Shown: positions 28,769 through 64,000 of the stretch, piece by piece
Numbering within the stretch: the first letter of the stretch is position 1
Layout of the letters: each line of letters opens with the position of its first letter
DNA from: Azolla caroliniana
Taxonomy: Eukaryota > Plantae > Polypodiophyta
Direction: 5' to 3'
DNA: 64,000 bases
Assembly: GCA_043228905.1 (NCBI GenBank)
Contig: JBHGNT010000008.1
Coordinates: 12,152,001 to 12,216,000, forward strand
Translations under genes and position numbers: made by a program
Notes under the pieces: model-generated
Databases searched by the model: none
Seen by the model: the letters and a program-made list of their open reading frames with translations, nothing else
Told to the model about the DNA's origin: nothing

Positions 28769-29004
28769 CAATCGGCATCCACGTAGCCCACTAATTGTCC
28801 GTCTATACTTGCCTGATATAACAACCCATGATCCTTCATGCCGCTCACATATCACATGATTCAATGCACGCACTGAAGGTGATCGGCTTTCGGTTACGAG
28901 ATAAATTGACGGATTAAACCAACTGGATAACTGAGGTTTGGCCGGGTGATAGTCAAGTAGATGAGGGTTCCGACAATTTGTCGGAACCATGTTGGGCCAC
29001 ATGC

Positions 29005-29159
29005 TATCATGAAGTACAAAAGCTTCACATTAAAAGTCTACCAAAAGATAAATACGTAACTAAAATAAAATATATCTTGATAATGTTTTATATATATATT
29101 ATTTGCCTCTACATATAATGTATAATATTATCATAGTGTGTTTTTTAATATTACCTTTA

Positions 29160-29190
<31 letters not shown>

Positions 29191-30370
29191 ATATTATATT
29201 ACATGGACAAGAGAGGACTTGAACCAATAATATATATATATATATTATTTGCCTCTACATATAATGTATAACATTATCATAGTGTGTTTTTTAATATTAC
29301 CTTTATAAATAAATAAATATATATTATATTACATGGACAAGAGAGGACTTGAACCAATAATATATATATATATATTATTTGCCTCTACATATAATGTATA
29401 ATATTATCATAGTGTGTTTTTAATATTACGTTTATAAATAAATAAATATATACATATATTATATTACATGGACAAGAGAGGACTTGAACCAATAACCCCA
29501 ACCTTATGACTTTGAAACCTTACCATTTACCCTATAATTGTAGTATGTATAATTTACTATATGTCTTCTTTTATTTGAAGTAATATTGTATGGTTTAAAT
29601 CCTAAACCATATAATGTACTACATGTGCACCATATATTGTATTACATGGGTGAGAGAAGACTTGAACCAACAAACTCCACATTATGAACCTCAAAGCCTA
29701 CCATTTAGCCAATACTCATTATATATATAAAAGAAAATGTGTTGTTTTATTTGAAGTAGCATTGTGTAGTCTAAACCATGTAATGTACTACATGTGCACC
29801 ATATAGCACACATGCAAGAGCCCCTTTTTGCATGTGTGACATAGGGCCCACATGCAAAACCATCCCCTTCCTATAAAAGGAGAAGGGAGTATAGTGACAA
29901 GGATATGAAGGAATCGATCAATATCAAAAGAACTATATTATATATATCAATAGAATCAAATAGAGTTATGTTGTAAGAGATATCACAATAGAGAAAGAAG
30001 AAAAGAAGGTCAATATACAAGAGAAGCTCTAAGTTGGCGGTTGTGGTGCTCAACTCTCAACAAAAAGGGTGGAGGTTCGAGTCTTATCTCATTGAAAGAT
30101 AGAAGAGAAGATTGTGGTCTACTTGTGAGACAAAGTTCAAATTCAACAATGCTCGCAACTATTTTGTAACTCTTTCATCAAATAATTATAAATCTCTTTT
30201 ATTGCTTCAATTATCATTCTATATCCTATCTTGTCATATCTTGTTGATCACTATTTATCTATTTCTACTCTTTCATCACTTCCATCCAAAATCCTAGTGA
30301 TTCCTTCCTCACTTTCACGTTATCTTCTGTCTACGTAACGCTACGCTTCCAGGTGAGCCACGCCACGACA
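29005..30370 (+). mobile_element. Solo LTR X (TATCATG...CACGACA) with internal ~128-bp tandem repeats and tRNA-like boxes
   Basis: Flanked by ATGC and ACGC; TATA CTATAAAAG at ~29870; repeats at 29090-29510. Confidence 0.7.
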
Positions 30371-30374
30371 ACGC

Positions 30375-32621
30375 TGTCGTGAAAAAACCGTCACTACGTG
30401 CGGATCGTGAGGCGGAACCGCCGAGGTTCTGAACCGGAAGGATTCGAAGTTTGCACTAGCTTTAGCGAGAAAGGATTTAAGATAGATTGAGAGAGATTGA
30501 TATTGAGAGAGAGAGATTGAGATAAAGATTGAACGCTTGACTTTAGATTTGAGAGACAAGATATATTATGATAACTTGATTTATTATTATTATTATTATT
30601 ATTATTAATTTCTTCCCAAGTTCTTCATTCGTCCCATTTTGCTTGACCTCCATTCTTTTATAGATCCCCCAATGCATATGATGCATGGGAGGGTGCAAGA
30701 CATGCATGTAACACATTAAATGCATGCGATGCATGTTTGCCATGTCACTCATCCAAGCTCTCATGTATGAAATTTTACATATGAAAAGTATAATGATAAA
30801 AACATAACTTTAAAGTTATGACTTAGCTTAGTGGTAAGTCATGTGGCTCTTATGTAGGAGGTGTGAGGTTTAAATTTTTACTTACACTCTTATAAACACA
30901 AAATTTTACAAGGCTTTAGTCTTGTTTTTACAAATGTTCAACTGCATATTGCATCTACAGTTGACCTCCAATGAACCGACGGAACCGTTAGACAATTTTG
31001 TTCATTTCACATTGAAAATCTTCAAGACACCGTGCGTCGCAATCATCCTGTTCAACTGACTCGACCGATCCGTTTTTCCGGTTCGTCCGTTCCGGTTCCG
31101 GTTCTCCAAAACCATTTTGAACAACTTGGCCGCATCCATTTGTCCAAGTTATATAACCCAACCTTTTTGTGCTCCTAACACATAGATGAAATATAAAGAG
31201 ATATGGCTCTACAAATCATAGAATGAACCATACGTATCATACGTGCATTCGCATTCGAGAATGATTTGATCAAACGTGTATGGTAAATCATCTCAAAGTT
31301 GGATTGGATTCACTATGGTCTATATTATATATTGATTCACTCTCAATCCCAATAAGTGGACTCTAATCCATTGTGAACCACCAACATAAGTACGGTTGCA
31401 ATATTTGCATTGTATCACATGCATACTTTTGGGATGCTTCTTAAGAATCAAGACATCTCTATCATCCTCACTTTAGAACTTCACAAAAAAATGAGTATGA
31501 ACTATAGATATTGAATCAAAATATGTCATTATAAATTATAACGTTCAAAAACTCATAAAACGTATATTCAAGAATATGAAGAAAACATGACATAGGCAGT
31601 GGTAGCATAACAACTTACCACTAGGGTGACCTAATTTTCTAATAACAAAGAAAGAAAAAAAGAAAAGAAAAAAGAAACGATCAAAAACTCATAAAACGTA
31701 TATTCGAGAATATGAAGAAAACATGACATAGGTAGTAGTAGCATAACAATTTACCACTAGGGTGACCTAATTTCTAATACAAAGAAAGAAAAAATAAAGA
31801 AAGGAATATGACACTAACATAAAATGTTGCCATGACATAGGCAATAGTAGCATAACAACTTACCACAAGGGTGAGCTAATTTCTAATAACAAAGAAAGAA
31901 AGAAAAAGAAGAAAAAGAAGAAAAAGGAACATGACACTAACATAAAATTTTGCCATGACACTAACAAGAGGATATGAGAAAGTTGGGAATTGAACCCAAG
32001 ACACAAGTAATAATAACACAACAACTTAGCACGAGGTCGTGCTTACGTCTAATAATAAAAAAAGAAAAGAAAAAAAACTATTATAACACTAACATAAAAA
32101 AATTCTATAAATGGTACTAAAGAGATAGAGAAAGAGATGAGACAATTGGGAATCGAACCCAAGACATAGACAACAATAGCATGACTCTTTACCACTAGGA
32201 TGAGCTGAATTGTAATGAATTGTAACGATTAAAAAAAGGAGCACATATTTTTCCCATTTCAAACGTGTTCGTTTCCAAACGTTTGAATGCTTGTATGAAT
32301 ACAAATATTACGTTCTATAGCTTTACTTATATAATCTTGAATCCTGATGGTGTTCCATCTATGTGGGATATCTCATAGTTTTGTTTTCGTCTTCTTCTTC
32401 TCAAACTTCATACTCACATAACTTCACACTAAGTTGTCCATTTCACATGTAGTAAAATGCATTTAGAAGCTCTTGAAGACATCCATATTTTCGTAACAAG
32501 ATATTAAACTAATATAAAATAATATCTTCACTATTATTGTTTCATATTGTGTGTGAAGAACCACACTCGATTTTGTACATTCCTCGCAATTTTCACACCA
32601 TTGCCAAAAATCTTCACGATA
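30375..32621 (-). mobile_element. Solo LTR Y (TGTCGTGAA...TTCACGATA)
   Basis: Flanked by ACGC and ACAC. The left end shares CGGATCGT...GCGGAACC...GAGGTT with the LTR at 40840. Minus-strand TATA at ~30655-30664; degenerate tandem repeats at 31545-32210. Confidence 0.7.
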
Positions 32622-33315
32622 ACACCTTTCCCAATTTGGGGCGAAGCTTGACATTCCTATCAAGAGGAGTCAAGATGGATTTACAATCCATCATGCCCAA
32701 CTTGAAGAGCATATTGAGCACATAATCGTTGGTTGATCAATATGCCTTTGGGGTTCGGATCACTTCGATCTTGAGGAAGTAGTGAAGATCCCCCAGATCC
32801 TTCATCTCGAATGATGCAACAAGTTCGGAGTTGATGCAACCGATTTCCTCCAAGTCGGCACCGACGATGACTAGATCATCAACATAAAGTAAAATACTTA
32901 CCAGCTCATGTTGACCTTGCCGGATGAACAGTGAAGAATCTAACTTTGATGTAGCAAACCCTATCCAACGTAGTTCCTACGTGATCTTTGTGTTCTAAGC
33001 ATGTAGGTGTTGAGAGACGAGCTCAACATTGGGTGCGTAAATGAGTACATAACCCAGTGCGTAGACTAGGTGCATAAAACCGTACACAAAATATGGTCGT
33101 GGCAATGTTTAAACTGAGAGGCCGTTAGAGTGTTATTCCACATAAGGAATAATTTTAGGAGTAAGTGTAAGATGCTCATTTATAAGCGGTCAAGTACTGT
33201 AAGTACTTGTGTCATCCCAATAGTCAGGGATTGTATAAAAGGTGCTCATTGAGCACGAAGTATGTACAGAGAACATACAGAGAATTATTTTGAATATAGT
33301 TTTGTAGTTTTGTAG

Positions 33316-40839: not shown

Positions 40840-41602
40840 TGTCGTGCCTTTCGGCTCCGGATCGTTGCGTGAGTCGGGCGGGAACCATTGAGGTTTTGGA
40901 CTAGGAAAAAATAAAATTCTAAGGCAATGAAGAATATGAAATATGTTGTAAGAAAGAAAGATATGAAAAACTCGTTAATCCCACGAGTATAGTGTATTAG
41001 TGAGTACTCAGATTAAGAGAGAAAAATAGTTAGCAAATTCGTGAATCCCACAATTATATTATATTAATCCACCCTTGTAAAATAAACAACAACCACTATA
41101 CATCTTTCTCTCTCCCTTATATAGTGTTGGAAGAGTCTAAGTTTATCACATGCAAGCATCATGCTTTTCCTAACTTTAGTTTTCATGCACACTGCATGTG
41201 CATGATTAGTTTTCCTAACTTTAGTTTTCATGCACACTGCATGTGCATGATTAGCTTTCTATCCCATCTTTTTCTTTTTTTAACTCGAGTGTGTATGCAT
41301 GAATAACTTTTTGTACCATGCATATCTAGAATATTTACATGGGATAAAGTTTAGTATAACTCTAAAATTCATAATATGCTAGTATAGTGGTAAGGCTGGG
41401 GTTTGTCTACGTGGAGGTACAGGGTTCGAACCCTGCCCTATTCATGTAATAAATATTTTTCATATTTTATTTTATTTATTATACGTACTTTAAATTGGAT
41501 ATAGTATTTTACATATTTCACATAGTGTGTGATTCACACTACGACACTCGCCCCCTCCGAACCCGCACATCCTCCGGTATGTGCCGAAGTCCCCGATGCT
41601 TG

Positions 41603-42247
41603 CTATTCACCTTCATCCGAAGCTTCCTCCGATTCTCCCCTTAAGTCGACTATGACTTGTAATCCACTTTCTTTGCTTTCCGCATCACCGCAATCTTCGT
41701 CTGATTGCTCCTTCTTGTCGGTCTTGTCTAGGATCACATAGGGTTCTTCATCAGTCTGCTTTTGGAAAATCTTCACCCGTTTCACAGCTATAGGCACTCG
41801 TAGCATCGTTCCATCCAACTCGCATAGTCGGTAAGTTCCGTTGTGGAAAAATTTCCGAACCTCATATGGCCCGAACCACCTTTTCGCGAACTTCCGCACC
41901 GTTGTATGTTGATGATCCAAACTACTGTCGTAGACAATCACTTAATCTCCTTCTTCAATCTTCCGTGGTTGTAGTCGGTGTTTTGTGTCGAACCGGCTTT
42001 TATTCCGGAATCGCGCTTCTTGTTGTCGGCGTATTGCTTTCGCTATGTCTTCCGGTTTTCCCTCTAGTTATCGTATCCGGACCGCTAGTAGTTCTCCCCG
42101 GCTTATCTCTTCCTTCCACGGTAGCACTGTCCATGTCGCGATCGCGGTTTCCGTTGGCATTACCGGTGCTTGTCCAGTCATCAGTTTTGCCAGCATGTAA
42201 CTGGTTACGGAGCTATGGGTCGTCCAATCCGCCCATAGTGCATACGG
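41603..42247 (-). pseudogene. Gypsy integrase C-terminal part (GPY motif)
   Basis: RKFAKRWFGPYEV...NGTYRL...RVKIF. Confidence 0.85.
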
Positions 42248-42922
42248 TGTCGTGCCTTTCGGCTCCGGATCGTTTGCGTGAGTCGGGTGGGAACCACCGG
42301 GGTTTTGGACTAGGAGGAAGAAAAATACAAATAAGGCTAGTAAAGAATAGGTATAAAGAGTTATAAGATAAGAATCTCGTGAATCCCACGAGTTTAGTAT
42401 ATTTAGTCAATATTTAGGTAGTAAGAGAGAATTATTTTAGCAAATTCGTGAATCCCACGAATATTTTAGATTGATTGATCATTATAGAAAAATAATCAAC
42501 AAAAACTACAATGTGCTCCCCATCCTTATATAGTGATGGGAGAGACTAAGCATAGCTACATGCTTTTTCTAATATGTTCATGCACACTAAATGTGCATGT
42601 GATGCTTTTCTAATCCTTGCTTTTATTTGCTAAATATAGTGCTCATGCACGCTAGATGTGCATGAGTCACTTTTTTGTTGCTTGCGTTTTTCTATAAAAT
42701 ATTCACGCACTCTAAAATATGCACGATTTACCTTTTAATAAAGTTAGGCGCAAATAAAGCACTTATAGTTATTAAATCTATTTATAGAACACTAAAGATA
42801 AGGTAGCATAATGGTAAAGTTGAGGTTTGGCTACGTGGAGGTACAAGGTTCGAATCTTGCCCTATGCATGTGATAAATATCTTGATATTCTTATTTTATT
42901 TATTTATATGTAATTAAATCGG

Positions 42923-44998
42923 TTATATTATTTTTACTTTTTCACGTAGTGTACGAAATACACTACGACACTCGCCCCCTCCGAACCCGCACATCCTCCG
43001 GTATGTGCCGAAGTTGCCGATGCTCGTTGTCTCCCCTTCATCCTCCGTTTGTCCCGCTATGTCAACTTTGTCTCTCCATTTTGAGTAGACCCATTCTTTC
43101 CACCCGAACCATTGTCGCCATCCGATCCACCATATTCTTTGTTCTCTCTCGTCATATTCTTGGCCCTTGTCATTCGTGGTAGTGTCTTTTACTGGCCTCT
43201 TTCTTGTCTTCATCAACCTTGACTTTTTTCCGGATCGCTCTCGTCCGATCGACTTTCGGTTTGATCGGCTTCCAATCGGATTCGTATTCAGCCGAATCGG
43301 AATCGGTTGTTCGGTTTTGATTGAGCCGGTCTCCTTCCGCCCCGGTTTCGATCTATCGGTTTCGGTTTCGGTTGGCTTTCTTTTCCTCGTTTTCACCAGC
43401 CTCGACCGGTCCAACCTCCGGTTGAGTCGGATTAGCTTCTTTCCGGATCGGTCTCGTCCGATTGGCTTTCGGCTAGGTCGGCTTCCATCCATATTCGCGT
43501 TCGGCCAAGTAAGACTCGGTCGATCGGTTTTGACCGATTCGACCCCTTTTCGGGTCGGCTTTCTTTCGGGTCGTCTTTCGGCCGAATCCTCATTCGCCCG
43601 GTTCGGCTTTCGTTTGTGTCGTCTTTCGGCCGAATTCTCTTCCTTTCGGTTCGGCTTTCTTTCGGGTCGACTTTTGGTCGAATCCTCTTTTACCCGGTTC
43701 GGCTTTCTTTCGGATCGGAATCCCGTCCGGATCACCTTCCATCCAAACTGGCTTCCGACTTTACCTTCCTTGCCGCCACCTCCCGTCTCTCCGGTCTCAC
43801 GTTGCTTCTCAGACACAACCGCCGAAGTCTCTAGGATTAGTGGGTAGGAATCCTCGGTATTATCATCCTCCATTGTTTCACCCATAGCCATATTCTCGGC
43901 TATCTCTCCGTCATACACATCGACTTCGACCTTTGTTTTCTCTCCGCCACCTTCCGTCTCTTCGGTCTCACGTTGCCTTTCGAACGCAACCGCCGGAGTC
44001 TCTGGAATTAGTGGTGGGGAAGTCTCAATATGGCCATCCGTCGTTGATTCGTCCATAGCCACCTTCAATTCGATGTCATCTTTCGTGGTGACCTCCTCAA
44101 TCAAGTCCTCCTTGCTCTCTTTCACTGCATCAATTATGCAAACATCAATTATGCTTACCCCTTTTTCACCCGAAGTTTCAGACACTTGTATTCCGAAATC
44201 TTCTTCTACACTTGGGTTATCGGCCTTATCCTTTGTCGTTGTTCTTTCGCAAGACAAGAGGGTAGCTTGTTTTACACCCTCTTTCGTCGCACCATCATGT
44301 TGTATTTCGGCCTTCATATCGGCTCCATCGTTTGTCTTCAATCGACCATCCTTCATCGGCCATGTTGTTGACAAGATTCTCATCTTCCTCTCATCATGTC
44401 TCCGGCATACCCTTTGGACTTCGGCCCAATTTTCGGTAAGACCATTCGTACCGTCATCGTCTTCGAGTTCGATCCCGATGTCCATCCTTTCTTTTCGATC
44501 GATCGATTTTACGAACATTAGGACTTTATCCTCTCCCACCAATCGTTGTTCCCGCTCCGAGAGTCGAGCAAAACGATGCTCGAACTCTAGGAATGCTTGT
44601 GTTGCACTTCGGTGGGTCTTCTCCGATGCCACCCATTCGTCGAATTTTCGCCGATCTTGTCCCTTTGATCTCTTGTAATCATATGCCTCTCGTAAAGCTT
44701 CTTCGAATGACCCCCATGTCGAGTTTTGTTGCCGTATCTTGTGGATTCTCTCTTGTAGCTCATCCGTGGCCACCCGATTGAAGGATGTCACTTGCAATCC
44801 TTCCGGTATCCCACATCGTATCATCTCCGCCTTGTAGTCACGTAGATAGCGTGACACATCGTTTCCGTTGAATTGTCCGTTTCGTTGTACGAGCCGCTTT
44901 ACTGCCCCCGTGATCTCCGACATCACTCGTTGTTCTTGTAGCATCCGCTCGAACATCATCATCATCGTTATGCTCATTGCCTCTTGTTGATTCTCCAT
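42923..44998 (-). CDS. Intact Gag-like protein, 691 aa from the first ATG after the PBS
   Basis: N-terminus (GQFNGNDVSRYL...WGSFEEAL...FVKSID...LTENW) is homologous to the host Gypsy gag pieces. It is followed by an acidic region, basic RKPNR-type repeats and a Trp-rich tail; the stop lies in the 3' LTR. Confidence 0.85.
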   Translation of the reverse strand: MENQQEAMSITMMMMFERMLQEQRVMSEITGAVKRLVQRNGQFNGNDVSRYLRDYKAEMIRCGIPEGLQVTSFNRVATDELQERIHKIRQQNSTWGSFEEALREAYDYKRSKGQDRRKFDEWVASEKTHRSATQAFLEFEHRFARLSEREQRLVGEDKVLMFVKSIDRKERMDIGIELEDDDGTNGLTENWAEVQRVCRRHDERKMRILSTTWPMKDGRLKTNDGADMKAEIQHDGATKEGVKQATLLSCERTTTKDKADNPSVEEDFGIQVSETSGEKGVSIIDVCIIDAVKESKEDLIEEVTTKDDIELKVAMDESTTDGHIETSPPLIPETPAVAFERQRETEETEGGGEKTKVEVDVYDGEIAENMAMGETMEDDNTEDSYPLILETSAVVSEKQRETGETGGGGKEGKVGSQFGWKVIRTGFRSERKPNRVKEDSTKSRPERKPNRKEENSAERRHKRKPNRANEDSAERRPERKPTRKGVESVKTDRPSLTWPNANMDGSRPSRKPIGRDRSGKKLIRLNRRLDRSRLVKTRKRKPTETETDRSKPGRKETGSIKTEQPIPIRLNTNPIGSRSNRKSIGRERSGKKSRLMKTRKRPVKDTTTNDKGQEYDEREQRIWWIGWRQWFGWKEWVYSKWRDKVDIAGQTEDEGETTSIGNFGTYRRMCGFGGGECRSVFRTLREKVKII

Positions 44999-45014
44999 CT
45001 CCTTGCCACCCGCC

Positions 45015-45032
45015 TTCACGTCGGGTTCACCA
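45015..45032 (-). promoter_or_regulatory. Primer-binding site complementary to the 3' end of tRNA-Trp
   Basis: TGGTGAACCCGACGTGAA, 4 nt inside the 5' LTR; matches the plant cytosolic tRNA-Trp 3' end as recalled (...TTCACGTCGGGTTCA-CCA). Confidence 0.85.
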
Positions 45033-45795
45033 ACTGTGTCGTGCCTTTCGGCTCCGGATCGTTTGCGTGAGTCGGGTGGGAACCACCGGGGTTTTGGACT
45101 AGGAGGAAGAAAAATACAAATAAGGCTAGTAAAGAATAGGTATAAAGAGTTATAAGATAAGAATCTCGTGAATCCCACGAGTTTAGTATATTTAGTCAAT
45201 ATTTAGGTAGTAAGAGAGAATTATTTTAGCAAATTCGTGAATCCCACGAATATTTTAGATTGATTGATCATTATAGAAAAATAATCAACAAAAACTACAA
45301 TGTGCTCCCCATCCTTATATAGTGATGGGAGAGACTAAGCATAGCTACATGCTTTTTCTAATATGTTCATGCACACTAAATGTGCATGTGATGCTTTTCT
45401 AATCCTTGCTTTTATTTGCTAAATATAGTGCTCATGCACGCTAGATGTGCATGAGTCACTTTTTTGTTGCTTGCGTTTTTCTATAAAATATTCACGCACT
45501 CTAAAATATGCACGATTTACCTTTTAATAAAGTTAGGCGCAAATAAAGCACTTATAGTTATTAAATCTATTTATAGAACACTAAAGATAAGGTAGCATAA
45601 TGATAAAGTTGAGGTTTGGCTACGTGGAGGTACAAGGTTCGAATCTTGCCCTATGCACATGATAAATATCTTGATATTCTTATTTTATTTATTTATATGT
45701 AATTAAATCGGTTATATTATTTTTACTTTTTCACGTAGTGTACGAAATACACTACGACAACGGAAGCATCTGCAGCCAATCCTTCACCCTTCCGT

Positions 45796-46607
45796 TGTCG
45801 TGCCTTTCGGCTCCGGATCGTTGCGTGAGTCGGGTGGGAACCACAGAGGTCTTGGACTAGGAGAAAGAAGTTCGTGAGATAGAGATTAATTATGAGTAAA
45901 TAGCAAAGAGAAAGATAAGAAACTCGTGAATCACACGAGTATACTATATTAATTGGTACTTAGGGTGTTAAGAGAGAAGTAGATGTATAAATCGTGAATC
46001 CCACGAATAATTTTTTTTTTATTGATTCATACTTAATCCAAATAATCAACAACCCTTTATATATTTCTCTCCTCCTTATATAAGGAAGGAAGAGCTAAGC
46101 ATGGCTTCATGCTTTTTTTTTTTTTACAAAAAGTGTTCATGTCCACTAAATGTGCATGTGATGCTTTTTTATTTCCTAAGTATAGGGCTCATGCACGCTA
46201 GATGTGCATGAGTTATTTTTAGTGTCTCGTGTTTTCTTTTTCATATATTAAAAAAATACACGATTTACCTTTTAATAAAGGTATGCATAAATAAAGGTCT
46301 TATACGTATTAAATCTATATTTAAAACACTTAAGATAAGTTAATGTAATGGTAAGGTTGGGGTTTGTCAATGTGGAGGTGCAGAGTTCGAATCACGCCCT
46401 GCGCAATAGTGAGTATTTCCTTTTTTTTTACATTTATGTCTCTTTATCCGGCTCTTCCTTGCCGGTATGCCGTTTTCTTCCTTGCCGGTATGCCGTTTTC
46501 CTCCTTGCCGGTATGCCGTTTTCTTCCGGTTCTCACCGAGCACTCCATTCTCTATCCGGAGGGACAAAAATATAATTTCCACATAGTGTGCAACCTACAC
46601 TACGACA
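45796..46607 (-). mobile_element. Solo LTR of the same Gypsy lineage, in the host integrase
   Basis: TGTCGTG...CTACGACA ends; TSD CCGT; internal ~22-bp repeat CCTTGCCGGTATGCCGTTTTC x3 at ~46455-46525. Confidence 0.92.
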
Positions 46608-46611
46608 CCGT

Positions 46612-49600
46612 CGCATGCTTTTGCAAGTGCTTTGAGGATCGGACTATATCCTCATTCGATTTTCCCGTTGGCCTCCGGATTGTATGCCGTTGTTAGTGTT
46701 ACCCGAACTCCATGTTTGGTGAAGAATTCCTTAGCTTTATCAGAGTCGAGTTCTCCCAGATCTGCAATCACTTGTCCTATGCACCCGTACCTGCAAAACA
46801 CCTACTCCAAAAGAAATTGGCATACCGCAGAACACGTTTTCCTTCGTAGAGCCTGACCTTCTACTTGGTTTGTGAGATCTTCCCGAGCTAACACCAAGTA
46901 CTTCTTTTGTCCGATCCCAGTTGGCATGGCTACAATGTCGACCATCCATTTGAAGTTGATTGTCGGTGAGAATGTCGAATGTAACTCATCTAGGTGTCGA
47001 ACTCCGGAGTAGATTTGACACTTCTTGTAGCTTTCCGTGAACTCCGCTATATCTTTGTACATATTCTTCCACCAATATTTTTGTTTGATTTTCACAAAAT
47101 TTGCCCATGTCCCTCGATGTCCAGCCCAATCAGATTCATGAAACTCGGACATTATTCGGTTTTGTTGCTCTTTCATCCTGACTACCTGAAGTGGTATGCC
47201 CTCCGGTCTTTTCGGCTCCCTCCATATTAATCCGTTTTTCAAGAAGAACTTTTGGACTTGCCTCTTCTTCCTTTGGATCTCGGCTCTCTTCTCTTTATCG
47301 TCCGGTGATTCCTCAATCTCTTGTAGCACCTTCCCGATCATCAAGCTTTCTCCTTCGTATTCTTCTTCTCGGAATTCTCGGATTACGTTTACTCGGCATA
47401 TGTGCTCCGAAGCAAGTAGTCTTCAGAAACTTCTTCATTATCGGATTCGGCTATGTCGTCTCCGAACCAAGCCATTGATAGCATATCCGCTACCTCATTG
47501 TCTTTTCCGGAGATGTGTCATACCTTCGGATTAAGTGACTTAACATATGCAATCCATCTTAGCATAGCCACATCCGGTATCGTGCAACACCGCATCATCA
47601 TGAGTATCAGAAGACAATCTATTTCGATCACTACTTCGGCTCCGATCAAATAATATCGATCTGATTTGATTGCCTACACGACTCCCCATAATTCTCTTTT
47701 GACTTGTGCATATCCATGTTGCCTTTTGTTGAGAACCTTACTCCGAATCGGATCGGATATCGGAAACCATCTGAGTCAGCTTGATTAATGACCCATCCAA
47801 TCCCGGTTGGGCTTGTATCAACCGTTACTATAACCAGTCGGTCATAGTTTGGCTTCTTTAGTGCTTTTGCCCTCCGTAGTGATTTCTTGAGCTTCTTCAC
47901 GGGTTTGGTATGCTCTGGTTTCCATTCAAACTTCTTCCCCTTCCACAACAAGTGATAGAGTGGGTCCGTTATGTGTGCATAGTGCGGAATCCATATATGG
48001 TAAAATGCACATGCCCCAAGAAATCTACGGACTTCGGATTGCGACTCGCATATCTCTTTCATAGCATGTATCGCATCGACCTTGGTTGGTGACGATCTTC
48101 GGCCGTAGGGCCCACATAGATGTCCGACTACCAATATCTCTTCTTGTCCGAATGCTGATTTCTCTCCGAAAAGTGTCAGGTGCACATCTTCTAACTTTCG
48201 TAGCACTTTCTCGCAATCACGAATATGGTTGACTACGAACTGTCAGCATCCCTGATCATCCATAGTCTCGTCTTTTTCTTCCACCGCGCATCCTTTTATC
48301 GGAATGTCATCTAGGAACGGCATCGTTATCTCCGGAATGCAGTCCCTGAGCACCTTGTTCATTGCATTCATCATATGTGCGACCGAGTTCATCGCGCCTT
48401 GTGGTAGCGTACACATCCGGACTAATCCTATCGGTGTCTGCATGGTAGTGATGTCTCGGCTCTCCACAGCTAGTTGGAATTGGTCATACCCCGAGTATAG
48501 GTCTCCGATGGAGTATATCGCATGACTGGCAAATGCTTCCAAAAATTCGTCCACTATCGAACCGACTCTGGAGTTCCGGATCATGACCTTGTTCACCGGT
48601 TGCAAGTCTTGGATAAATCGGAGTGACTCATTCTTCTTCGGAACTGTAAACCATCGATTTGAGTACAGAGCATTTGATGGCTCTAGAATCCCCATCGCTA
48701 CCTTCTCCTTGAGCAAGTCGATGATTTTCGGAATATGCGCCCGTGGCACTAGAATTGGCTTTAGGTTCCACGGCACATGGTCAATCGTGAAGATCACCAT
48801 CGGCTCCACTATCTTCGGGTCACCGCGTCCTATTTCTTTCGATGTAAATGCAAATGCTCTCCCATGTCACTCTAGCATCCCACAGAATCGTTCTTCTTCA
48901 TTGTTTAATAGGAACCCACCTCCACCGATCTAAAGTTTCTTCCGGGGGTCTCATCCATGAAGGCATGTCCGATATCCATGGACTTCCGAAGTGTCGGATC
49001 CCTCGAGACTTCTTTCCTCTTTTGTTCGCTATCAGCGGGTAACGGTCCCCCGACCGGTTTCACTTTCTTCTCCACGGTCTTGTATTTCGTACTTACCATT
49101 GCTTCTTCTTTGTGGAGTGCATCCGGCCCCATTTTCACAATGATCTCGTACATCTCGACCGATTCCACCGGGACTACCCGGCCTCCCTGGCTTGTATCTT
49201 CCGCGAGCTCTTCAAGCCGTTGTACTGTGCTCCCATAGAACACTTCTTCGACTATTCCCACGATTTCTTCATCTTCTTTATTATTGATGCCGACCGTAAT
49301 TTATCCTCCACTTTTCGGCATTCTTTCTTCATTCCTCCGGTTACGTCCATGTACATAGATGCCCCATCCGGACTAATTCGTACTTGTTTTGCTCAAGAGT
49401 TTTCTTCCTATGTGGGGAATGAGGGCTTCTCGGACTATCACTTCCCCACTCCGCAACAATCCGCTCTAAAAATCCATCCTTGTTTGGGACAAGAGCTCTC
49501 TCTTGTTCCTTTCATGATTTGCTAGCACAGTTAGGAATTGGACGGATTTCCCTCCGCTTTGGCTCTGAATTCATGCGAAAGCCGCACCGCTATCGAGCAC

Positions 49601-51288: not shown

Positions 51289-51498
51289 TGTTGTAGGTTT
51301 TTAGGGTTAGGGTTAATGGTAATGATGATTGGTGATGGAGATGGTGTGTTTAATGAGGATGATGAGCGTTATGGGATCGATGGTGAGAGAGACGACAAGC
51401 ATTGAGAAGCATTGTGGGGTGGGGGGTGGTGCCTAGAATGGCTCCACCCCCCTCCCCAAGGGGTTCAACGTTGAGGGAGAGAGATAGGAAGAGAGGTG

Positions 51499-51551
<53 letters not shown>

Positions 51552-54500
51552 GATTCCTTTTTTCATTCATTCCCCATAAGGGGGTTAAATAGTACAAGAG
51601 GGGGTAGATACAAAGGGGTGTAAGCCCACTAGAGCATTCATATTGGACACTCACTCACACCTCATCGTATCCCTCCACATGCACACACGTGTGCATGTGT
51701 TCACATACATATCAACTCACAATTACATTTATGTTCCCTACACATATACAACATCATCATGGTAATATTCGACCCTCGCTCATCACACTTGACTCTCCGT
51801 ACAGCTCGTACGGGGTAACACAATATGGCACGCCCGTGGGAAAGTGCCTTGCACGTCGATCCCACATGCCTTGATGATGATATCTCTTCGACCGGAACTT
51901 CCATCGGTCCTTTCAACGATCGATTCCCACGATCGGAGCGCTTGACTCGATCATCTCCATCGGTCAGCGACTTTTCTGCGACACGAACATTCTCATTCTG
52001 TCGTCTTGCGAACTTTGGTATCCTCTTTCGGGTCCTTAAAAATGTTGTGTGTATGTATGTTATTCTTTGTTGATTTTGTGAGTTGTCGTGGTCGATCACG
52101 TCCATTTCTTTAGGTGGATAAGATTTCAAAATTTCATAGGTGCCCTTTGATTTTTAAAATTTTCTTATATACCCTCAGGTTTTTACAATTATGTTTGATA
52201 CCCTCATGTATCTAGAATTCCAATAGTGCCCTTAGGTTTGTTTTTCGAAATTTCTAGGATGTCCTCAGTTTCCAAAATCCGAGGATGCTCCGTATGGTTA
52301 TCTTTTTCCCTCCCTCTTTTCTGTTTCATCTTCCTCTTTCTTGGTGTTAACCGTTGCTTCTTCTCCTCTTCCTGTCTTTCGTTTCCTCCTCTCTCTTTCT
52401 TCTTCTATCTTTGTTTCTTCCACTTCTTCCTTGTTCTGTTTGGCGTTTTGGGGTAGGGAGGAAACGCAACCTTCACTCTCCCTTTGCTTGCATGTCATCT
52501 CCCTCTACTGCTGTCGTCGTCGTTTCCGTTGGCCGGTTCTGGTTGTCCGTCTCTGTCCGGTCCTTCTGCCTGCTGCCGCTTCATCCGGCCGCTCCGGTGC
52601 TGATGTCCGGCTAGTCCGTTCTTCCCGGCTGTTTTTGGTCATTTGTCCGGCCGTCTTCGCTCTGGTCGACGATCTGTCGCCGTCCATCATTCCGGTCGTT
52701 TCCATCATTCGCTCTGGCCGTCATTTGTTTCTGTTGCCTGTCCATTTCAATCATTTTTTGTCCCCAGCTTCGTTGTCGTCTCCATCTTTATCTCTTTGCC
52801 TTGTCCGGTAGTCATCATCATCGTTCGTCTTTCGTTGTCGTCCATCACTGTCGACCGTCACCATTGCCATCTCTATTTGACCCGTCCGGGCACCGCCACT
52901 TCATCTGGCCGCCTATGCGTTGTCAGGCCTCTATTTCGTCGTTTCGACGTCGTTTCTCGTCTCGTTCATTCAGGCCGGCTGTCTGGCAGCCGCTTCCCGT
53001 TGTCATTGTCTATCATTGTCCTTCTGTCGTGGTCATCTTGTGTCTCGTCCGTTGTTCGACCCCTGGTTTGGCCTCGGCTTTCCGAAGTGTGCGGCCCTTT
53101 CCCTCTCTGTCTTGGCCACTGTCCGACCTCGTGCTTTTGTCTGGCCTGTCTGGTCCGCCTGCCTCGATTCCGATACCATTCGGCCACTTTGGCTGCTTTT
53201 GTGCCTTTCGGCCGCTCGTCGGAATGTCTATCCATTGTCTTCCGGTCTGTTTCGGTGTAATTGTTCTAGCCATCGAGTTGTCTTAGTGCGGCCTGTTCCG
53301 GTCCATTCCGGCCGGTTTTCCGGTAGTCGGTTCGGCTACTGTCCGGCTGCTCTGTGTCTTTGCGCATTCCGGAAATCGATCCAACCGCTATCCGGCGGAT
53401 GCCGCTCTGCCGTTGCCACTGTACAACCGCCGCTCCATCCGGTTACTATCTTTGTCCGACCGGGCTGCTGTTGGTCGGCCACCACTCTAGCTCCATCAGG
53501 TCACTGTCTCTGTCGCTCTTTGGTGTCCATATCCCATCGTTTGGCTATTGCCATTGTCGTGGCTGTGCATTTCGGATATCGTCTCTGTCGCTCCTCGGTT
53601 CTATCCGGCCGTCGTCCCACTGTCTTCCAATCGTGTGTCTGGTCTGTCTGTCTGTGTGGTCGCCTGTTCGGCCCATTTGACCCATCCTACTGTGTCTTGT
53701 GTCTTTTTGGTCACTTTTGTCTAATGCATCCGTCTGTATCTTTCCAGCGCTATTGGTTGATGTCTGGTTTGCATCTGCATCTCCTCCGTCTTCTTCGGCC
53801 CTTCGGTGTTAACCGACTTGGGTTCTGGTTCCGATTCCGGTTCCGACTGTCTGCGCGTTTCTTCTTCTGGAACCATTGCCCGTGCATTCTCAGCACATCC
53901 TGCCGGTATCCGCTCCACACACTGCGACTTTCTCCGCAGTCTCCTGGTGGGCTTCTCTTTCCGGTCGTGCTGGCACCGGTTCCCACTGCATCGCAGTTTG
54001 TACAGTTGTGCATCTTGCACCGCGCTTTCAAAAACACGCACATTGTCGCTAACCGCATCGGAAACCCGCACATTGACACTAATTGCACCCTCGCACAACC
54101 ATTGTTGCCATTCATGCATTCCTCCATCGCATCATCATTTCTTGCACTCTTACACAAACATTTCTTGCACTCGTACACAAACGTCATCGTTTCCATTTCT
54201 TCGCTTGCACATACATTGAACATCGTCGCTGTCATTTGCATGTTTCTGTCATTTCTCGCACATCATGCTGCCACGTTCTCTTCTTGGACTTCTTCATCAA
54301 AGGGGGTCCGCCGTTGTGGTCGCCAAAAGGTGTTGTCTGTCTGGCCGGACTAGCCTCAACACAAGTGTCTACCCGACACTTCTCCAAAGGGGTGGTAAGG
54401 ATTGGATGCTAGGTTACACGCATAAGATGATTACAATTAAGCACGGACGGCAAACAATACGAGATACAGATAAATACACGACAATTACTATTGTATTACT

Positions 54501-54951: not shown

Positions 54952-54969
54952 TTCACGTCGGGTTCACCA
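54952..54969 (-). promoter_or_regulatory. tRNA-Trp primer-binding site of the host Gypsy
   Basis: Identical 18-mer to 45015-45032, 4 nt inside the LTR. Confidence 0.85.
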
Positions 54970-55637
54970 ATTATGTCGTGCCTTTCGGCTCCGGATCGTT
55001 GCGTGAGTCGGGCGGGAACCACTGAGGTTTTGGACTAGGAGAAAATAAAATTCTAAGGCAATGAAGAATATGAAATATGTTGTAAGAAAGAAAGATATGA
55101 AAAACTCGTGAATCCCATGAGTATAGTGTATTAGTGAGTACTCAGATTACGAGAGAAAAATAGTTAGCAAATTCGTGAATCCCACAATTATATTATATTA
55201 ATCCACCCTTGTAAAATAAACAACAACCACTATACATCTTTCTCTCTCCCTTATATAGTGTTGGAAGAGTCTAAGTTTATCACATGCAAGCATCATGCTT
55301 TTCCTAACTTTAGTTTTCATGCACACTGCATGTGCATGATTAGCTTTCTATCCCATCTTTTTCTTTTTTTAACTCGAGTGTGTATGCATGAATAACTTTT
55401 TGTACCATGCATATCTAGAATATTTACATGGGATAAAGTTTAGTATAACTCTAAAATTCATAAATATGCTAGTATAGTGGTAAGGCTGGGGTTTGTCTAC
55501 GTGGAGGTACAGGGTTTTGAACCCTGCCCTATGCACGTAATAAATATTTCTAATATTTTATTTTATTTATTATACGTACTTTAAATCGGATATAGTATTT
55601 TACATATTTCACATAGTGTGTGATTCACACTATGACA

Positions 55638-58440: not shown

Positions 58441-61400
58441 GATGTAGTCAAAGGCCTAAAGACAAGAGACGAATTAGAGACAGCCAATTCGGATGAGAGC
58501 GGAATTGAATCAGAAGTGTTCGATTCAATTGAAATGTTTGATTCGGTTATTATGAATCGAATGAGGGCCAAGCGAAAAAAGGGCAGTGAAGGACGCGCCA
58601 ATACCGTGACAGCAAGGGGGCTGAGAAGGGCCGAACAAGTAGACAAGCCGACCAAAAGGGTCGAAGTGCGCGAAATCGAACGAGTTGAGGAGCGCAAGCG
58701 AGGCGTGAAGCAAGAAGGAACCTGAGCGTAGATCCGGAAGAGCAGACAGAACCTCAAGTTGAGCTTGAGGAGGAGTGTTGAGTGACAAGCTCAACATTGG
58801 GTGCGTAACCTAGTGCATAAACTGGGTGCGTAAAATAGTACGCATAACATGGCCCTATCGGTGAGTAAACCAAAAGGCCGTTAGTATGGTATTCCTCATA
58901 AGGAATAATTTTGGGAGTTAGTGTAGTAGGCTCATTTATGAGCAGCCCGATAGTCACGGCTTGTATAAAAGGTGCTCACTGAGCACGAAGAATGTACTGA
59001 GCATCATTATTTTTTAATAGAATTGAGTTGTCTGCTCTCTCTCTGTCTCTCCATCTCCATCTCCATCTCTGTGGTTTCTTTGTTTACTGAACTGTCTAAT
59101 TTCCAAACTGTGTACTCTGTGTATTCTTTTACAAAACCGAGAAGCCATTAGAGTGTTATTTTTCGTAAGGAATAATTTTGGGAGTAAGTGAAGAATGCTC
59201 TTTTATAAGCGGTCAAGTATTGTAAGTACTTGTGTCAGCCCAATAATCAGGGCTTGTATAAAAGGTGCTCATTGAGCACGAAGTATGTACAAAGAACATC
59301 TAGAGAATATTTTAATATAGTTTTGTATTTTCTGCTCTCTCTCTCTCTCTCTCTCTCTATGTCTCTCTCTCTCTTTCTCTGTGATTTCTGCGTTTTACCG
59401 ACATGTCATACTACCGAACCGTGTACTCTGTGTTCTTACACATACGCTTCCGCACATGTATTCTTTTACACTTTTGGCCACTGAATTTCGGAAACCTGAA
59501 AACAATGTTTTCTGTTTGCATCTCCTGGAGCCACGGAACGTTGACGTGGTTGAACTGCTTGTTCTACAAGTCCATGCCCGATTCGACTTTTATCCCTTTG
59601 GCGAATATAGCGGTGCCAACTTTGTCTGTTTCGAGGATGAACATCATCCCTTCTCGGTGTCTATGCGCGATCATCTTGCCTTCTTCTTCGATGAAGCACC
59701 CAAGATGAGTAAATCAAACTTGCATACCATGGTCAACAATTTGTCCGACAGACACCAAGTTCTTGTTGATAATCGGCACATGCATGTTCTATTCTACAAG
59801 TCCATGCCCGATTCGACTTTTATCCCTTTGGCGAACATAGTGGTGCTAACTTTGTCCGTTTCGAGGATGAACATCATCCATTCTCAGTGCCTATGCGCGA
59901 TCATCTTGCCTTCTTCTTCGATGACGCACCCGAGATGAGTAAATCAAACTTGCACACCCTAGTCAACAATTTGTCCGACAGACACCAGGTTGTTGCTGAT
60001 AATTGGCACATGCATGTTCCGATTCTTCCTTCCAGCCATGCCAATCTGCTACAACGTGTATTTGTAGGAGAATTCGTGTCGAATTCCTTCCTTTTGCGGA
60101 TAGCGAGAGAACTGGTCGAAAAAGTACTCTTTCCCACTAGCGGACCTTAGGCACTTGATCTTTCAACCTATCTCCCAATCAAGAAGGCATTTCACCTTCA
60201 AGAAGTAGGAGAATACTTTGTTTTTCTTCTTGATCAAGCACGCCTAACTGTACCGAGTGTAGTCATCAATGAAGTTTACAAAGTAATGACTTCCACCAAT
60301 ACTCACATTCTACGTCGGTCCCCATACATCCGAATGGATTAAATCAAGCTTGTTTCGGCTCCGATCTCTTCCCTATGGGAACGGAACTCAGTGATGCTTC
60401 CCTAACTAGTAGGCTTTATAGACTTAGCCCTTTCGGCCACTAAATTTCTGCAATCCGAAAATGATGTTTTTCATCTGCATCATCTAAAGTCGCGGGAAGT
60501 TGACGTGGCTGAACCGCTTGTTCCACAAGTCGATGTCGGATTTGAATTTTTTTCCTTTGGCTAACATTGCGGCGCCGACGTCGTTCGTTTTGAGGATAAA
60601 CATACTCCCTTCTCGGCATCCATACTTGATGATCTTGCCTTCTTCTTCGATGAAGCACAGGAGATGACTAAATCGAACTTGCATGCCCTAGTCAACAGTT
60701 TCTCCAACCGACACCAAGTTCTTGGTAATTGTCGGGACATGCAAGTTCCGATTCTTCCTCTCAATTACACCATTATTCTAGGGCATGTATCTACAGGAGT
60801 ATTCGCATCGAATTCCTTCCATTTGCGGATAGCTAGAGAACTGGTTGAAAAGGTACTCTTTCCCGCCATCGAACCTTAGGTACTTGACCTTTCAGCCTGT
60901 CTCCTGTTTGTCAAGGCTTTTCACCTTCAAAAAGTAGGAGAATACTTTGCTTTTCTTCTCGATCAAGCACGCCCAAGTGTGTCGAGTGTAGTCATCAATG
61001 ACAATTACAAAGTAACGACTTCCACCAATACTCACATTCTACATCCGTCCCCATACATCCGAATGGATTAAATCGAGTTTGTTTCGGCACCAATTTCTTT
61101 CATTTGGGAAAGGAAATCACTGATGCTTCCCTAACTAGCACGCTTCGTAGACTTGGCCCTTTCAACCACTAAATATTGGCAACCCGAAAACGATGTTTTT
61201 CGTCTCCACCTCCTAAAGCCGCGGGAAGTTGACGTGGCTGAACCACTTGTTCCATAAGTCGATGTTCGATTCGACTTTTTGCCCTTTGGCTAACATTGCG
61301 GTGCCGACGTTGTTCATTTCGAGGATGAACATCCTCCCTTCTCGGCACACATGCACGATCATCTTGCCTTCTTCTTCAATGAAGCACCCAAGATGAGTAA

Positions 61401-61800
61401 ATCAAACTTACATGCCATAGTCAACAATTTGTATGGCCGACACCAAGTTCTTGGTGATTGTCGGCACATGCAAATTCCGATTTTTCGTCTCAGCCATGCC
61501 ATTCTGCTGCGGTGTGTATCTATTGGATAATTCCCATTGAATTCCTTCCTTTTGCAGAGAGCTAGAAAACTGGTCGAAAAAGTACTCCTTCCCATCATCG
61601 GACCTTAGGCACTTGACCTTTCCACTTGCATGTCATTCAACAAGGCTTTAGCATGCCCAAGTGTGTCGAGTGTAGTCATCAGTGAAGGTTACAAAGTAAC
61701 GACATCCACCGATACTCATGTTCGTTGGTCCCCATACATCCGAATCGATTAAATCGAGCTTGTTTCGGCTCCGATTTCTTTCATTTGCAAACCTATTAGT

Positions 61801-61886
61801 GAGACTTGTGTTTTTGGTAAACAGTCGCCTAGGCCTGGTCACTGCGACCTCCTCTGTGAGAAGGCACCCCTTCTCCCAAAGTTACG
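61801..61886 (-). pseudogene. rrn23: Plastid 23S rRNA fragment
   Basis: Reverse complement reads CGTAACTTTGGGAGAAGGGGTGCC...GTCGCAGTGACCAGGCCTAGGCGACTGTTTACCAAAAACAC, a conserved plastid 23S segment. Confidence 0.85.
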
Positions 61887-62616
61887 CGTGCTAGGTTGTT
61901 GGCCAAGACTAGTTACTAGTCCGCCAATTTCTTATTGTTAGAAAAAAAGAAGCTGATCATCATTTACTAATATCCTGGACTTGTCGTAGTCAGGAACCAG
62001 GTCGCTAGGTAGTTTCTGATGATATGTTTTGTTCCGAATTCATTCGGGATACCACCATTAGCAATATAAGAGGATCCAACAATCAATCAATCAATCGCAT
62101 GCGGGGAACAAGGGCACTTGAGGGATCCTCGGCGGGACCTAGGAGAACATGTAGCGTTGGGTTGGGGTTCAGTGAACCAACTAAGGTCGCTCCTTTAGTT
62201 GAAGTATTGGGCTTCTTTGCACCCTCCTGTTGTCCTTGTTGGGTTACACTCTCTCTCGAGACCCTCCTCCAAGTATATTTCTTTCGCTCTACTTCTTTTA
62301 ATCTTAAATTTATGCCAAGGACTCTTTCCGCTGCCATGGAATGAGACCAGGAGAATCTCTATCCCAGCTAGTGAGATGTCACACATCGGAAATTAAGGCA
62401 TAGCTCATCGCCATCGCTGCCTATATCAATAGTTGGCCAGTCATACCTATCATCCCCGAAATGTCCCTTATATCGTGGGTGGGAGTCGATGTTTAATTTC
62501 TTCTCGGGTGTGGACCAAAGGAAGAAAGTTGAGCAGAGCTTGATCCCCGATTCAATTCATCAGTGATTGACCACAATAGAAAGAAGAGATAGGGGCTTTA
62601 TATTCATCTATTTTTA

Positions 62617-62685
62617 GATGGGCGGGAACACTTAACGATCTATGCAATTGATCGTATGGTAGGTCACAAACTGGGAGAATTTGCA
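62617..62685 (+). pseudogene. rps19: Plastid rps19 fragment
   Basis: [23 protein letters not shown]. Confidence 0.85.
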
Positions 62686-62702
62686 AACTCAATAAAACGG
62701 AA

Positions 62703-62765
62703 ACTAGTACCGTATAATAGTGGCCACAAACTTGATAGTCTAGACCAATTTGAAGAGTCATTAAT
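62703..62765 (-). pseudogene. ndhK: Plastid ndhK fragment
   Basis: [21 protein letters not shown]. Confidence 0.85.
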
Positions 62766-64000
62766 ACTAGCTAAAAAAATTGAGTTTGACGTGCCCTGAT
62801 CAGGTAACAATGACTCTATTGATGGAGAAGAGAACAACTATGGTGTGGCCTTCTCCAACCAAGAGGCACACCAAAATGAAAATATTTCACTTGTGCCCGT
62901 TAGTTGACCGTGTTTCTAGCTAACGTTCCTTGTCATTGCGAACGACACCCTATTCATTCGTTCGTTCGTTCGTTCGATCGGGGAATAAATCGCCCGCCCT
63001 TCATGCTGAATCCGCGTAGTCGGTGATGCTCCCTAACTGGTGGGCTTCACAAACTTGGCCCTTTCGGCAACCCGAAAACGATCTTTTTCGTTTGCATCTC
63101 CTGAAGCCACGGGAAGTTGACGTGGATAAACTGCTTGTTCCGAAAGATGATGTCCAATTTGACTTTTTTCCCTTTGGCGAACATAGCGGTGCTAACGTTG
63201 TTGGTTTCGAGGATAAACATCCTCCCTTCTCGGTGCCCTTGCGCGATCATCTTGCCTTCTTCATCGATGAAGCACCCAAGATAAGTAAATCAAACTTTCA
63301 TGCAATGGTCAACAATTTGTTTGACCGACACCAAGTTCTTGGTGATTGTCAACACATGCAAGTTCCGATTCTTCCTCTAAGCCACGCCATTCTGTTGCGG
63401 CGTGTATCTGCAGGAGAATTCGCGTCGAATTCCTTCAATTTGCGGATACTAGAGAACTGGTTGAAAAAGTACTCTTTCCCGCCATCGAACCTTAGGGACT
63501 TGACCTTTCGGCCTATGTCCTGTTCGGCAAGGCTTTTCACCTTCAAGAAGTAAGAGAATATTTCGATTTTCTTCTCGATCAAGGACGCCCAAGTGTGTCG
63601 AGTGTAGTCATCAATGAAGGTTACAAAGTGACGACTTCCACCGATACTCACGTTCTACATTGGTCCCCATACATCCGAATGGATTAAATCGAGTTTGTTT
63701 CCGCACCAATTTCTTTCATTTGGGAACGGAAATCACTGATGCTTCCCTAACTGGCATGCTTCGTAGACTTGGCCCTTTCAGCCACTAAATTTTGGCAACC
63801 CGAAAATGATGTTTTTTGTCTCCACCTCTTAAAGCCGCGGGAAGTTGACGTGGCTGAACCGCTTGTTCCACAAGTCGATGTCCGATTCAACTTTTTTCCC
63901 TTTAGCGAATATGCGGCACCGACGTCGTTCATTTCGAGGATGAACATCTTCCCTTCTCGACGCACATGCGCGATCATCTTGCCTTCTTCTTCCACTTCCG

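Follow-up and report, generated by a model that had tools for sequence, protein, structure and literature searches.

A tRNA-gene-like A/B-box module in the U3 of protein-coding, Phygy-like retrotransposons of a fern: a predicted TFIIIC site

A group of Ty3/gypsy elements in the fern Azolla caroliniana carries, in the U3 of its LTRs, an A box and a B box placed as in a tRNA gene. The cassette is real, and alignments indicate that it is tRNA-derived and selectively kept; a function is probable. Our preferred reading, to which we give about an even chance, is that the module represents a tRNA-gene skeleton acting at the DNA level, as a predicted TFIIIC site that flanks the Pol II enhancer of the LTR. 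LTR Pol III promoters were known before from small non-coding elements; what appears to be new is such a skeleton in the U3 of protein-coding fern retrotransposons. In the open literature (Repbase and subscription journals lying outside the search) we found no account of such a module in Phygy-like or fern elements.

The module in the window

The window, i.e. the whole stretch of 64,000 nucleotides that was analysed, was scanned with IUPAC A-box and B-box patterns that we take to be the textbook motifs. At up to two mismatches and a spacing of 35-62, 13 pairs were found in the window and 0-2 in each of eight block shuffles; at up to one mismatch and a spacing of 41-46, five pairs remained (41380, 42804, 29534, 29711 and 32203), and none in any of the eight shuffles. 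The first-pass annotation of this DNA had named five pairs (41380, 42804, 46341, 30824 and, on the minus strand, 29534), all of which proved exact in letters and coordinates, and its description of the five as U3 modules that stand on the upstream side of the TATA box and face away from it held throughout. Modules beyond that first list are found at 45593 and 55470 in the partner LTRs, at 29711 in LTR X and at 32203 in LTR Y. Weak matches of the scan at 18988, 22070, 23701 and 37368 are taken as chance. A further A/B-like pair with a spacing of 39 stands in sense at 30035-30084 (plus strand), on the downstream side of the LTR X TATA box.

From about 25 kb onward the window is made up of nested copia and gypsy elements. 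Element E1 (minus strand) has its 3' LTR at 40840-41546, with TG..CA ends, a TATA box at 41124-41115, a cluster of RY-like CATGCA motifs at 41154-41322, the PPT at 41547-41558 and a target duplication ACGT. Its 5' LTR (54974-55637, minus; primer-binding site 54952-54969) differs from this partner by 12 substitutions in 662 aligned bases. The pol fragments (46805-48866, minus) follow the Ty3/gypsy order, with RT at 48246-48866, RNase H at 47649-48242 and the integrase zinc finger at 46805-47422, and the integrase C-terminus lies at 41606-41941; pol is interrupted by stops and nested inserts, and E1 measures 10,466 bp minus its two recognised nested inserts. Nested in the E1 integrase is E2 (42248-45759, minus; LTRs 42248-42970 and 45037-45759; primer-binding site 45015-45032; duplication ACGG), a very young 3.5-kb derivative with 3 differences in 723 bases between its LTRs. 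It has no pol and a single open frame of 759 codons that gets no Pfam match and is read as gag-like, judged by its position. A solo LTR (45796-46607, minus; target duplication CCGT) also interrupts the E1 integrase, and an LTR-like stretch in the 5' part of E1 (about 51400-52300, minus), with a TATA-like box and then a long CT repeat, is perhaps another nested insert. Two more solo LTRs of different families, X (29005-30370, plus; TATA box 29871; flanks ATGC and ACGC, a duplication with CpG decay) and Y (30375-32621, minus; TATA box 30663; flanks ACGC and ACAC), stand head to head at one common ACGC site in a copia RT (29001-32625), where three target copies are left, with CpG decay on either strand. 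Y aligns to the LTRs of three of the relatives described below (L072, L065 and L076).

The module of the E1 3' LTR (41380-41433, plus; A box 41380-41390, B box 41423-41433; spacing 43) is antisense to the element, with 23 nt from the B box to the first T4 run, and its counterpart in the 5' LTR (55470-55524, plus) has T in place of C56 and one base extra. E2 has a module with spacing 43 in its 3' LTR (42804-42857, plus) and the partner copy in its 5' LTR (45593-45646, plus), in which G19 of the A box (45603) is hit by one of the just three inter-LTR differences. The solo LTR in the E1 integrase carries one at 46341-46394 (plus; spacing 43), and LTR Y an antisense one at 30824-30877 (plus) whose decayed B box has 3 mismatches. 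LTR X possesses two: a TATA-proximal antisense module (29658-29711, minus; spacing 43) and a second one (29480-29534, minus; spacing 44), the B-box half of which recurs in two further repeats of a 130-bp tandem array (29175-29495). The module at 32149-32203 (minus), sense to Y and followed by degenerate partial repeats (about 31590-32031), lies in a distal stretch of Y for which the fetched LTRs of Y's family gave no alignment, and it may be part of an inserted repeat.

An antisense module is found upstream of the TATA box in all seven LTRs (the E1 pair, the E2 pair, the solo LTR, X and Y), with a distance of 160-271 bp from T8 to TATA, or 337 bp for the 29534 module. The initial impression of several divergent LTRs was right as to the presence of the module; these LTRs are nevertheless of one lineage, and in the five Z LTRs (all but X and Y) the module sits at a shared place: counted from the LTR 5' end, it lies at 167-168 nt in four of them and at 267 nt in the solo LTR. 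The same position is found in relatives. Ten other LTRs or LTR-like repeats of the window, six of which flank copia coding sequence, are devoid of the module (best match with 5 mismatches). Between module and TATA box all seven LTRs have CATGCA clusters (for example 42584-42664, 41154-41322, 29811-29851, 30687-30735), which we assume to be RY/Sph-like motifs, i.e. sites of B3-domain factors.

Elsewhere in the window, a stretch of tandem repeats of about 729 bp (59471-63992) consists of inverted copies of a copia gag-pre-integrase/integrase segment and includes a fragment of large-subunit rRNA of plastid or bacterial type (61743-61898). A host sugar-transporter gene (STP-like, at least three exons) and, upstream of it, a GA/TC microsatellite hairpin with a weak miRNA-precursor score lie at 5026-7049 (minus) and 7990-8123; the transporter exon is 79% identical to an Adiantum protein, 74% to one of Ceratopteris and at most 69% to those of other named plants.

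The host lineage and its relatives

The target duplications are of the 4-bp NCGN type (ACGT in E1, ACGG in E2, CCGT in the solo LTR, and ACGC with CpG decay in X and Y). The sites hit in the window are in integrase and in a copia RT and not directly upstream of modules, which gives no backing to the idea of the module as a landing pad. E1, E2 and most of the long loci have in common an 18-nt primer-binding site ending in CCA, presumably of the tRNA-Trp type; a search of the viral collection for the primer tRNA gave no match. Pfam returned the order RT-RNase H-integrase and no chromo match, with the proviso that the broken E1 frames could hide a lost domain. The nearest named protein to that of the element is from the liverwort Riccia. 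The size of E1 and its domain order, without chromodomain or archaeal RNase H, fit the description of Phygy (about 7.7-10 kb), and on target duplication, domain order and size we call the host lineage Phygy-like Ty3/gypsy; LTR X is placed in it solely by its LTR ends and target duplication. The likeness comprises the NCGN duplication, a pol without extra domain, a size of about 8-10 kb and a primer site that may be of the tRNA-Trp type. Phygy is a lineage of the moss Physcomitrella, with a 4-bp NCGN target duplication and a tRNA-Trp primer (Neumann 2019, PMC6317226). In contrast to the elements studied here it has been described from Physcomitrella only, and the accessible part of its description contains no A/B module (PMC6317226).

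An alignment of the integrase C-terminus led to 226 relatives on metagenome contigs, of which 80 were kept, the boxes not being used for the choice. At 52 of these 80 loci the PPT and the LTR start could be placed with at least 300 bases behind them (51 by score, L010 by hand). Some relatives are close to the fern of the window, with 88% identity in pol and 90% in one LTR. The module occurs in 23 of the 52 LTRs, 18 times antisense and 5 times in sense; the 29 without it include three whose sequence ends some 30 bases behind the LTR start and one with a decayed copy. Two additional modules lie in 5' LTRs (antisense in L022, sense in L042). The antisense orientation noted at first is true of all five pairs named then, but not universal in the lineage, and the sense modules (L020/L021, L034/L035/L057 and L042) keep the same letters as the antisense ones. 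Six carriers (L005, L022, L026, L035, L042 and L066) have, along with the module, intact gag frames of about 700-750 codons and intact pol frames of 1165-1241 codons.

Five public DNA runs, with four organism labels, have contigs that cover the module with an identity of at least 80%; for three of the four organisms the loose ends beside the A box resemble the U3 context of the window LTRs. In organism E the summed depth of contigs peaked over the module and the LTR ends, with low values in between; depth cannot rank parts and was not used. The viral collection contained neither LTR relatives nor integrase relatives.

By U3 sequence the 52 LTRs fall into 22 clusters, seven of which have the module, and its carriers are scattered across clades of the integrase tree, which has long branches from frameshifted copies and was used solely to show this scatter. 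Sister elements are often alike over only the first 30-80 bases of the LTR, and since the likeness stops there, U3 is exchanged as a block. Related integrases combined with unrelated U3 past a common LTR tip were observed in L065/L076, in L066 versus L070 and L074, in L020/L027 and in L026/L029.

A/B pairs with a spacing of 44 are also present in non-LTR repeats of the same contigs: in an inverted-repeat element with three copies (L007:1473-2118) and in a common SINE-like repeat (L038:2771-2857, L045:3493-3608, L075:3067-3161). These repeats could be candidate donors of the module. A lone B-box-like motif, located 550-780 bases into the LTR (U5), was seen in L037, L040, L043, L048, L052, L062 and L075; these families have no U3 module, and the motif may be a general U5 motif of the lineage.

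One can regard the module as a neutral relic: tRNA or SINE heads would have landed in U3 and been carried along, and the conservation would reflect shared descent and ascertainment. The similar pairs in non-LTR repeats, the absence of the module from more than half of the LTRs, the frequent loss of C56 and the wholesale swaps of U3 between sister pol lineages are all in accord with this. The modules have, however, neither poly-A tails nor clear target duplications, and the pattern of constraint given in the next section, which is box-specific when set against base-matched columns and leaves the module columns free of indels, already strains the idea. Even decay, moreover, does not give stems at chance level in which box and loop letters persist. 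We consider a neutral relic quite unlikely. Independent SINE insertions, which had been raised as an alternative, find no support either: none of 18 modules has an A8 tail, flanking repeats exceed chance in 1 of the 18, and the position is shared between LTRs. The module is thus passed on together with its LTR.

Constraint on boxes and spacing

With spacings of 30-70 permitted, 19 of 24 A/B hits in the first 700 bp of the 52 LTRs have a spacing of 43-44 (a few of the 24 count one site twice). The same scan gave 5 hits in 78 kb of coding DNA and 4 in 102 kb of shuffled LTRs. A Z-lineage set of 16 LTRs was assembled from 13 intact loci and three window LTRs, leaving out the LTRs at 45037 and 54974 (the latter with a one-base insertion), three broken-off loci, the rearranged loci L012 (B box deleted) and L031, and loci in which the LTR could not be placed. 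The rows of this set are related, and three of the 16 are window copies that had first drawn attention to the boxes. Its spacing is 43 in 16 of 16, and gaps occur in 0 of 54 module columns versus 117 of 186 flank columns.

On a tree that was built without module and CpG columns, the eight invariant box letters outside CpG show 3 changes versus 14.7 for base-matched U3 columns (P 1.5e-4). Changes per column amount to 2.4 at degenerate box positions, 1.9 in the spacer and 1.8 in the flanks, so that the first two resemble the flanks. Ten family representatives are 31% identical in the mid-spacer and 77% in the B box, a contrast that is partly circular because the representatives were found by their boxes. 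The family LTR alignment and the tree-based counts thus agree that conservation is higher in the boxes than in spacer or flanks, as the first reading of this DNA had supposed, and decay at the neutral rate, which it had named as the opposite outcome, is disfavoured by the counts for the eight letters.

The module has the outline of a type 2 Pol III promoter, with A box and B box in order and the invariant letters present, except that C56 is lost in half of the copies: it is T in 8 of the 16 Z-lineage LTRs. Copies with more decay do not show this loss more often (P 0.71), and it is scattered rather than inherited by clade (6 changes, with 381 of 500 shuffles as low, on a poorly resolved tree); one C56-to-T change sets the two E1 LTRs apart and so postdates the insertion of E1. 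In yeast, mutation of C56 is reported to cause a severe drop in TFIIIC binding (PMC4228148). An 8:1 skew of TG over CA at the B-box CpG was considered as a strand signal and dismissed: other CpG sites are equally skewed (totals 52:42).

A tRNA register without a tRNA fold

All 23 modules align ungapped in the register of a tRNA, with fourteen tRNA-invariant positions. Genuine tRNA genes that were retrieved by means of the window's A box likewise have a spacing of 43, and the difference between 43 and 44 sits in the D-loop region. In 11 family representatives, not all of them independent, letters are kept outside the boxes as well: U33 in 10, A38 in 9, A44 in 9, G45 in 11, G46 in 10 and U47 in 11. 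Sites of Pol II factors might resemble the boxes by chance, the B box being a near-palindrome that reads B-box-like on both strands (L006, L036) and U3 containing other conserved enhancer-like motifs. Such a coincidence is highly improbable: in the gap-free alignment of the 23 modules fourteen tRNA-invariant positions fall into register, and the spacing stays at that of a tRNA in U3s that are unrelated to each other.

The fold, on the other hand, is not kept. Cloverleaf pairing is at chance (46.4% versus 45.9% in shuffled modules; Watson-Crick pairs 73 versus 64.7, P 0.12), no consensus fold was found across the modules, and 1 of 11 single folds is better than its own shuffles. ARAGORN reported no tRNA in the window and none in 60 of the 80 loci given, and Rfam, applied to the window, to the module region and to 18 loci, returned no tRNA match. 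Because its stems do not pair, the module is not a tRNA, and a functional tRNA gene is ruled out. As to isotype, the spacer is no nearer to the fetched genes for tRNA-Asp, Gly, His and Gln than shuffles are (best 49 of 500), and none of these is assigned to the module. A tRNA-Asp gene, which we assume to be eukaryote-like by its appearance, was seen on contigs in bacterial genome bins (L084-L086); these contigs are likely contamination.

The lost fold bears on what the module may produce. Pol III could make an RNA of 90-110 nt from it; as the antisense of the genomic RNA's U3 end, such a transcript would tune silencing or act as a decoy for tRNA-binding proteins. The two boxes are kept, together with their spacing, as are the loop letters U33, A38 and 44-47; a T4 run follows the B box after 14-47 nt in 15 of 17 LTR modules, a count in which the T-rich background is not factored in; and the U3 of simian foamy virus yields Pol III RNAs with A and B boxes (PMC3993851). 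On the other side stand the unconserved fold, with a single one of 11 beating its shuffles, a spacer that is near random between families, and three families with the module in sense. For the sense modules and the lack of a conserved fold, the antisense small RNA proposed in the first-pass annotation is not favoured, and we regard an RNA product as unlikely.

In HIV-1, U3 is said to include a tRNA-Lys3-like stretch, and an RNA-RNA bridge has to be weighed here, too: the genomic-RNA U3 of the antisense families would pair with the D and T loops of a tRNA, and this additional primer-binding site would bring the two ends of the genome together for strand transfer, in the manner of Ty3. This would account for the antisense bias (18 of 23), the exact tRNA register, the loop letters and the unpaired stems, and Ty3 RNA does have primer-binding segments at both ends, so that a tRNA-complementary stretch near the 3' end of a Ty3/gypsy RNA is a point of likeness (PMC4974528). 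The Ty3 segments are primer-specific (PMC4974528), whereas the fern module does not match its primer at the positions compared (49-52 and 1-7). At positions 49-52, as inferred from the primer-binding site of the window, 12 of 56 letters match over 14 modules; position 52 is a conserved G in the modules but necessarily T in the primer; and positions 49-52 and 1-7 match at chance. Furthermore, the primer site is common to all families examined, yet the modules differ, and sense modules are unable to pair with the tRNA. A bridge is thus very unlikely.

A predicted TFIIIC site beside the Pol II enhancer

Constraint on boxes and length, a lost fold and occurrence in either orientation together suggest a DNA site rather than an RNA, and sense modules with the same letters are to be expected of an orientation-independent DNA site. 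TFIIIC, the reader of such boxes, would dock at the outer edge of the Pol II enhancer of the LTR and there serve as a boundary or nucleosome-positioning element. The module would part the Pol II promoter from the CpG-containing DNA of the insertion site and so protect it against silencing. Any Pol III firing would yield an RNA of about 90-110 nt that ends in the T run behind the B box. As for its origin, the module probably goes back to tRNA or tRNA-SINE heads that were taken up repeatedly or became inverted, and exchange of U3 would have carried it from one family to another. As a regulatory cassette it is optional and stands outside the replication machinery.

Several observations are at odds with a TFIIIC site. 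C56 is T in half of the Z-lineage copies, the majority of the LTRs (29 of 52) have no module, and the letters kept outside the boxes are unexplained by a two-box model. The RY-like motifs, which are present also in LTRs without the module, are the best-conserved part of U3, ahead of either box. A complex on the 3' LTR would, in addition, be expected to obstruct the element's own Pol II transcript. The earlier suggestion that the module serves a lineage landing in methylated DNA is consistent with CpG-centred NCGN insertion; the 29 LTRs without it nonetheless indicate that it is not needed lineage-wide.

Among the closest known systems are Helenus and TRIMp3, whose LTRs have a tRNA-like sequence that is conserved around boxes A and B and is not a working tRNA (Kojima 2024, PMC10886601); an origin by SINE insertion is proposed there too, and the function is likewise presumptive (PMC10886601). 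Helenus elements, however, are non-autonomous TRIMs of 311-1263 bp that are thought to be transcribed by Pol III (PMC10886601), whereas the fern elements reach about 7-10 kb with gag and pol. Unlike Helenus, the fern elements keep a TATA box, and their module mostly points away from the element. Membership in Helenus/TRIMp3 was therefore rejected: boxes in the LTR fit, but six carriers with gag and pol do not agree with a non-coding element of about 0.3-1.3 kb. The sole plant family of Helenus in the available account is from Selaginella and has a 5-bp TSD; autonomous partners of Helenus are expected there to use Pol II promoters, and tRNA similarity of other Repbase LTRs is mentioned without analysis (PMC10886601).

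Cassandra TRIMs resemble the fern elements in having an internal Pol III promoter in plant LTRs, those of ferns included, but theirs is a 5S (type 1) promoter that drives their own transcript, and they are non-coding (PMC7215508, PMC10886601). Simian foamy virus, too, is an LTR retroelement that is autonomous, has Pol III units with A and B boxes in its U3 and can do without them in some lineages; what its units encode are stem-loop precursors of miRNAs (PMC3993851), whereas the fern module has full tRNA-gene geometry and no conserved fold. Barrier, insulator and nucleosome-phasing effects of TFIIIC and tDNAs are established in yeast (PMC4228148). The yeast tDNA/ETC barriers share with our case the proposed TFIIIC near a Pol II promoter; they are host loci demonstrated by experiment (PMC4228148), in contrast to the fern module, which is part of a mobile element and whose role is deduced.

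Conclusions

Pol III promoters of plant LTRs have been described for tiny non-coding elements, which use them for their own copying (PMC10886601, PMC7215508). The boxes reported here are in coding elements that keep a TATA box, and hence must have another role, if any. That coding, Phygy-like fern elements have repeatedly gained a portable tRNA-gene skeleton, which recruits TFIIIC and shields the Pol II promoter from silencing at the targeted CpG sites, is a tentative proposal that we hold to be rather doubtful in its entirety. If it were true, this would be a self-insulating plant retrotransposon, thousands of copies of which would seed TFIIIC sites across giant fern genomes, and the kept letters U33, A38 and 44-47 would mark a recognition beyond the two classical boxes. 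LTRs of this kind will also swamp B-box and tRNA-like scans of fern genomes, of which such surveys should be warned. Sister families with and without the cassette, and with the cassette in both orientations, constitute a natural experiment on whether TFIIIC sites form chromatin boundaries in plants, and on the ability of a transposon to bring along its own defence against silencing.
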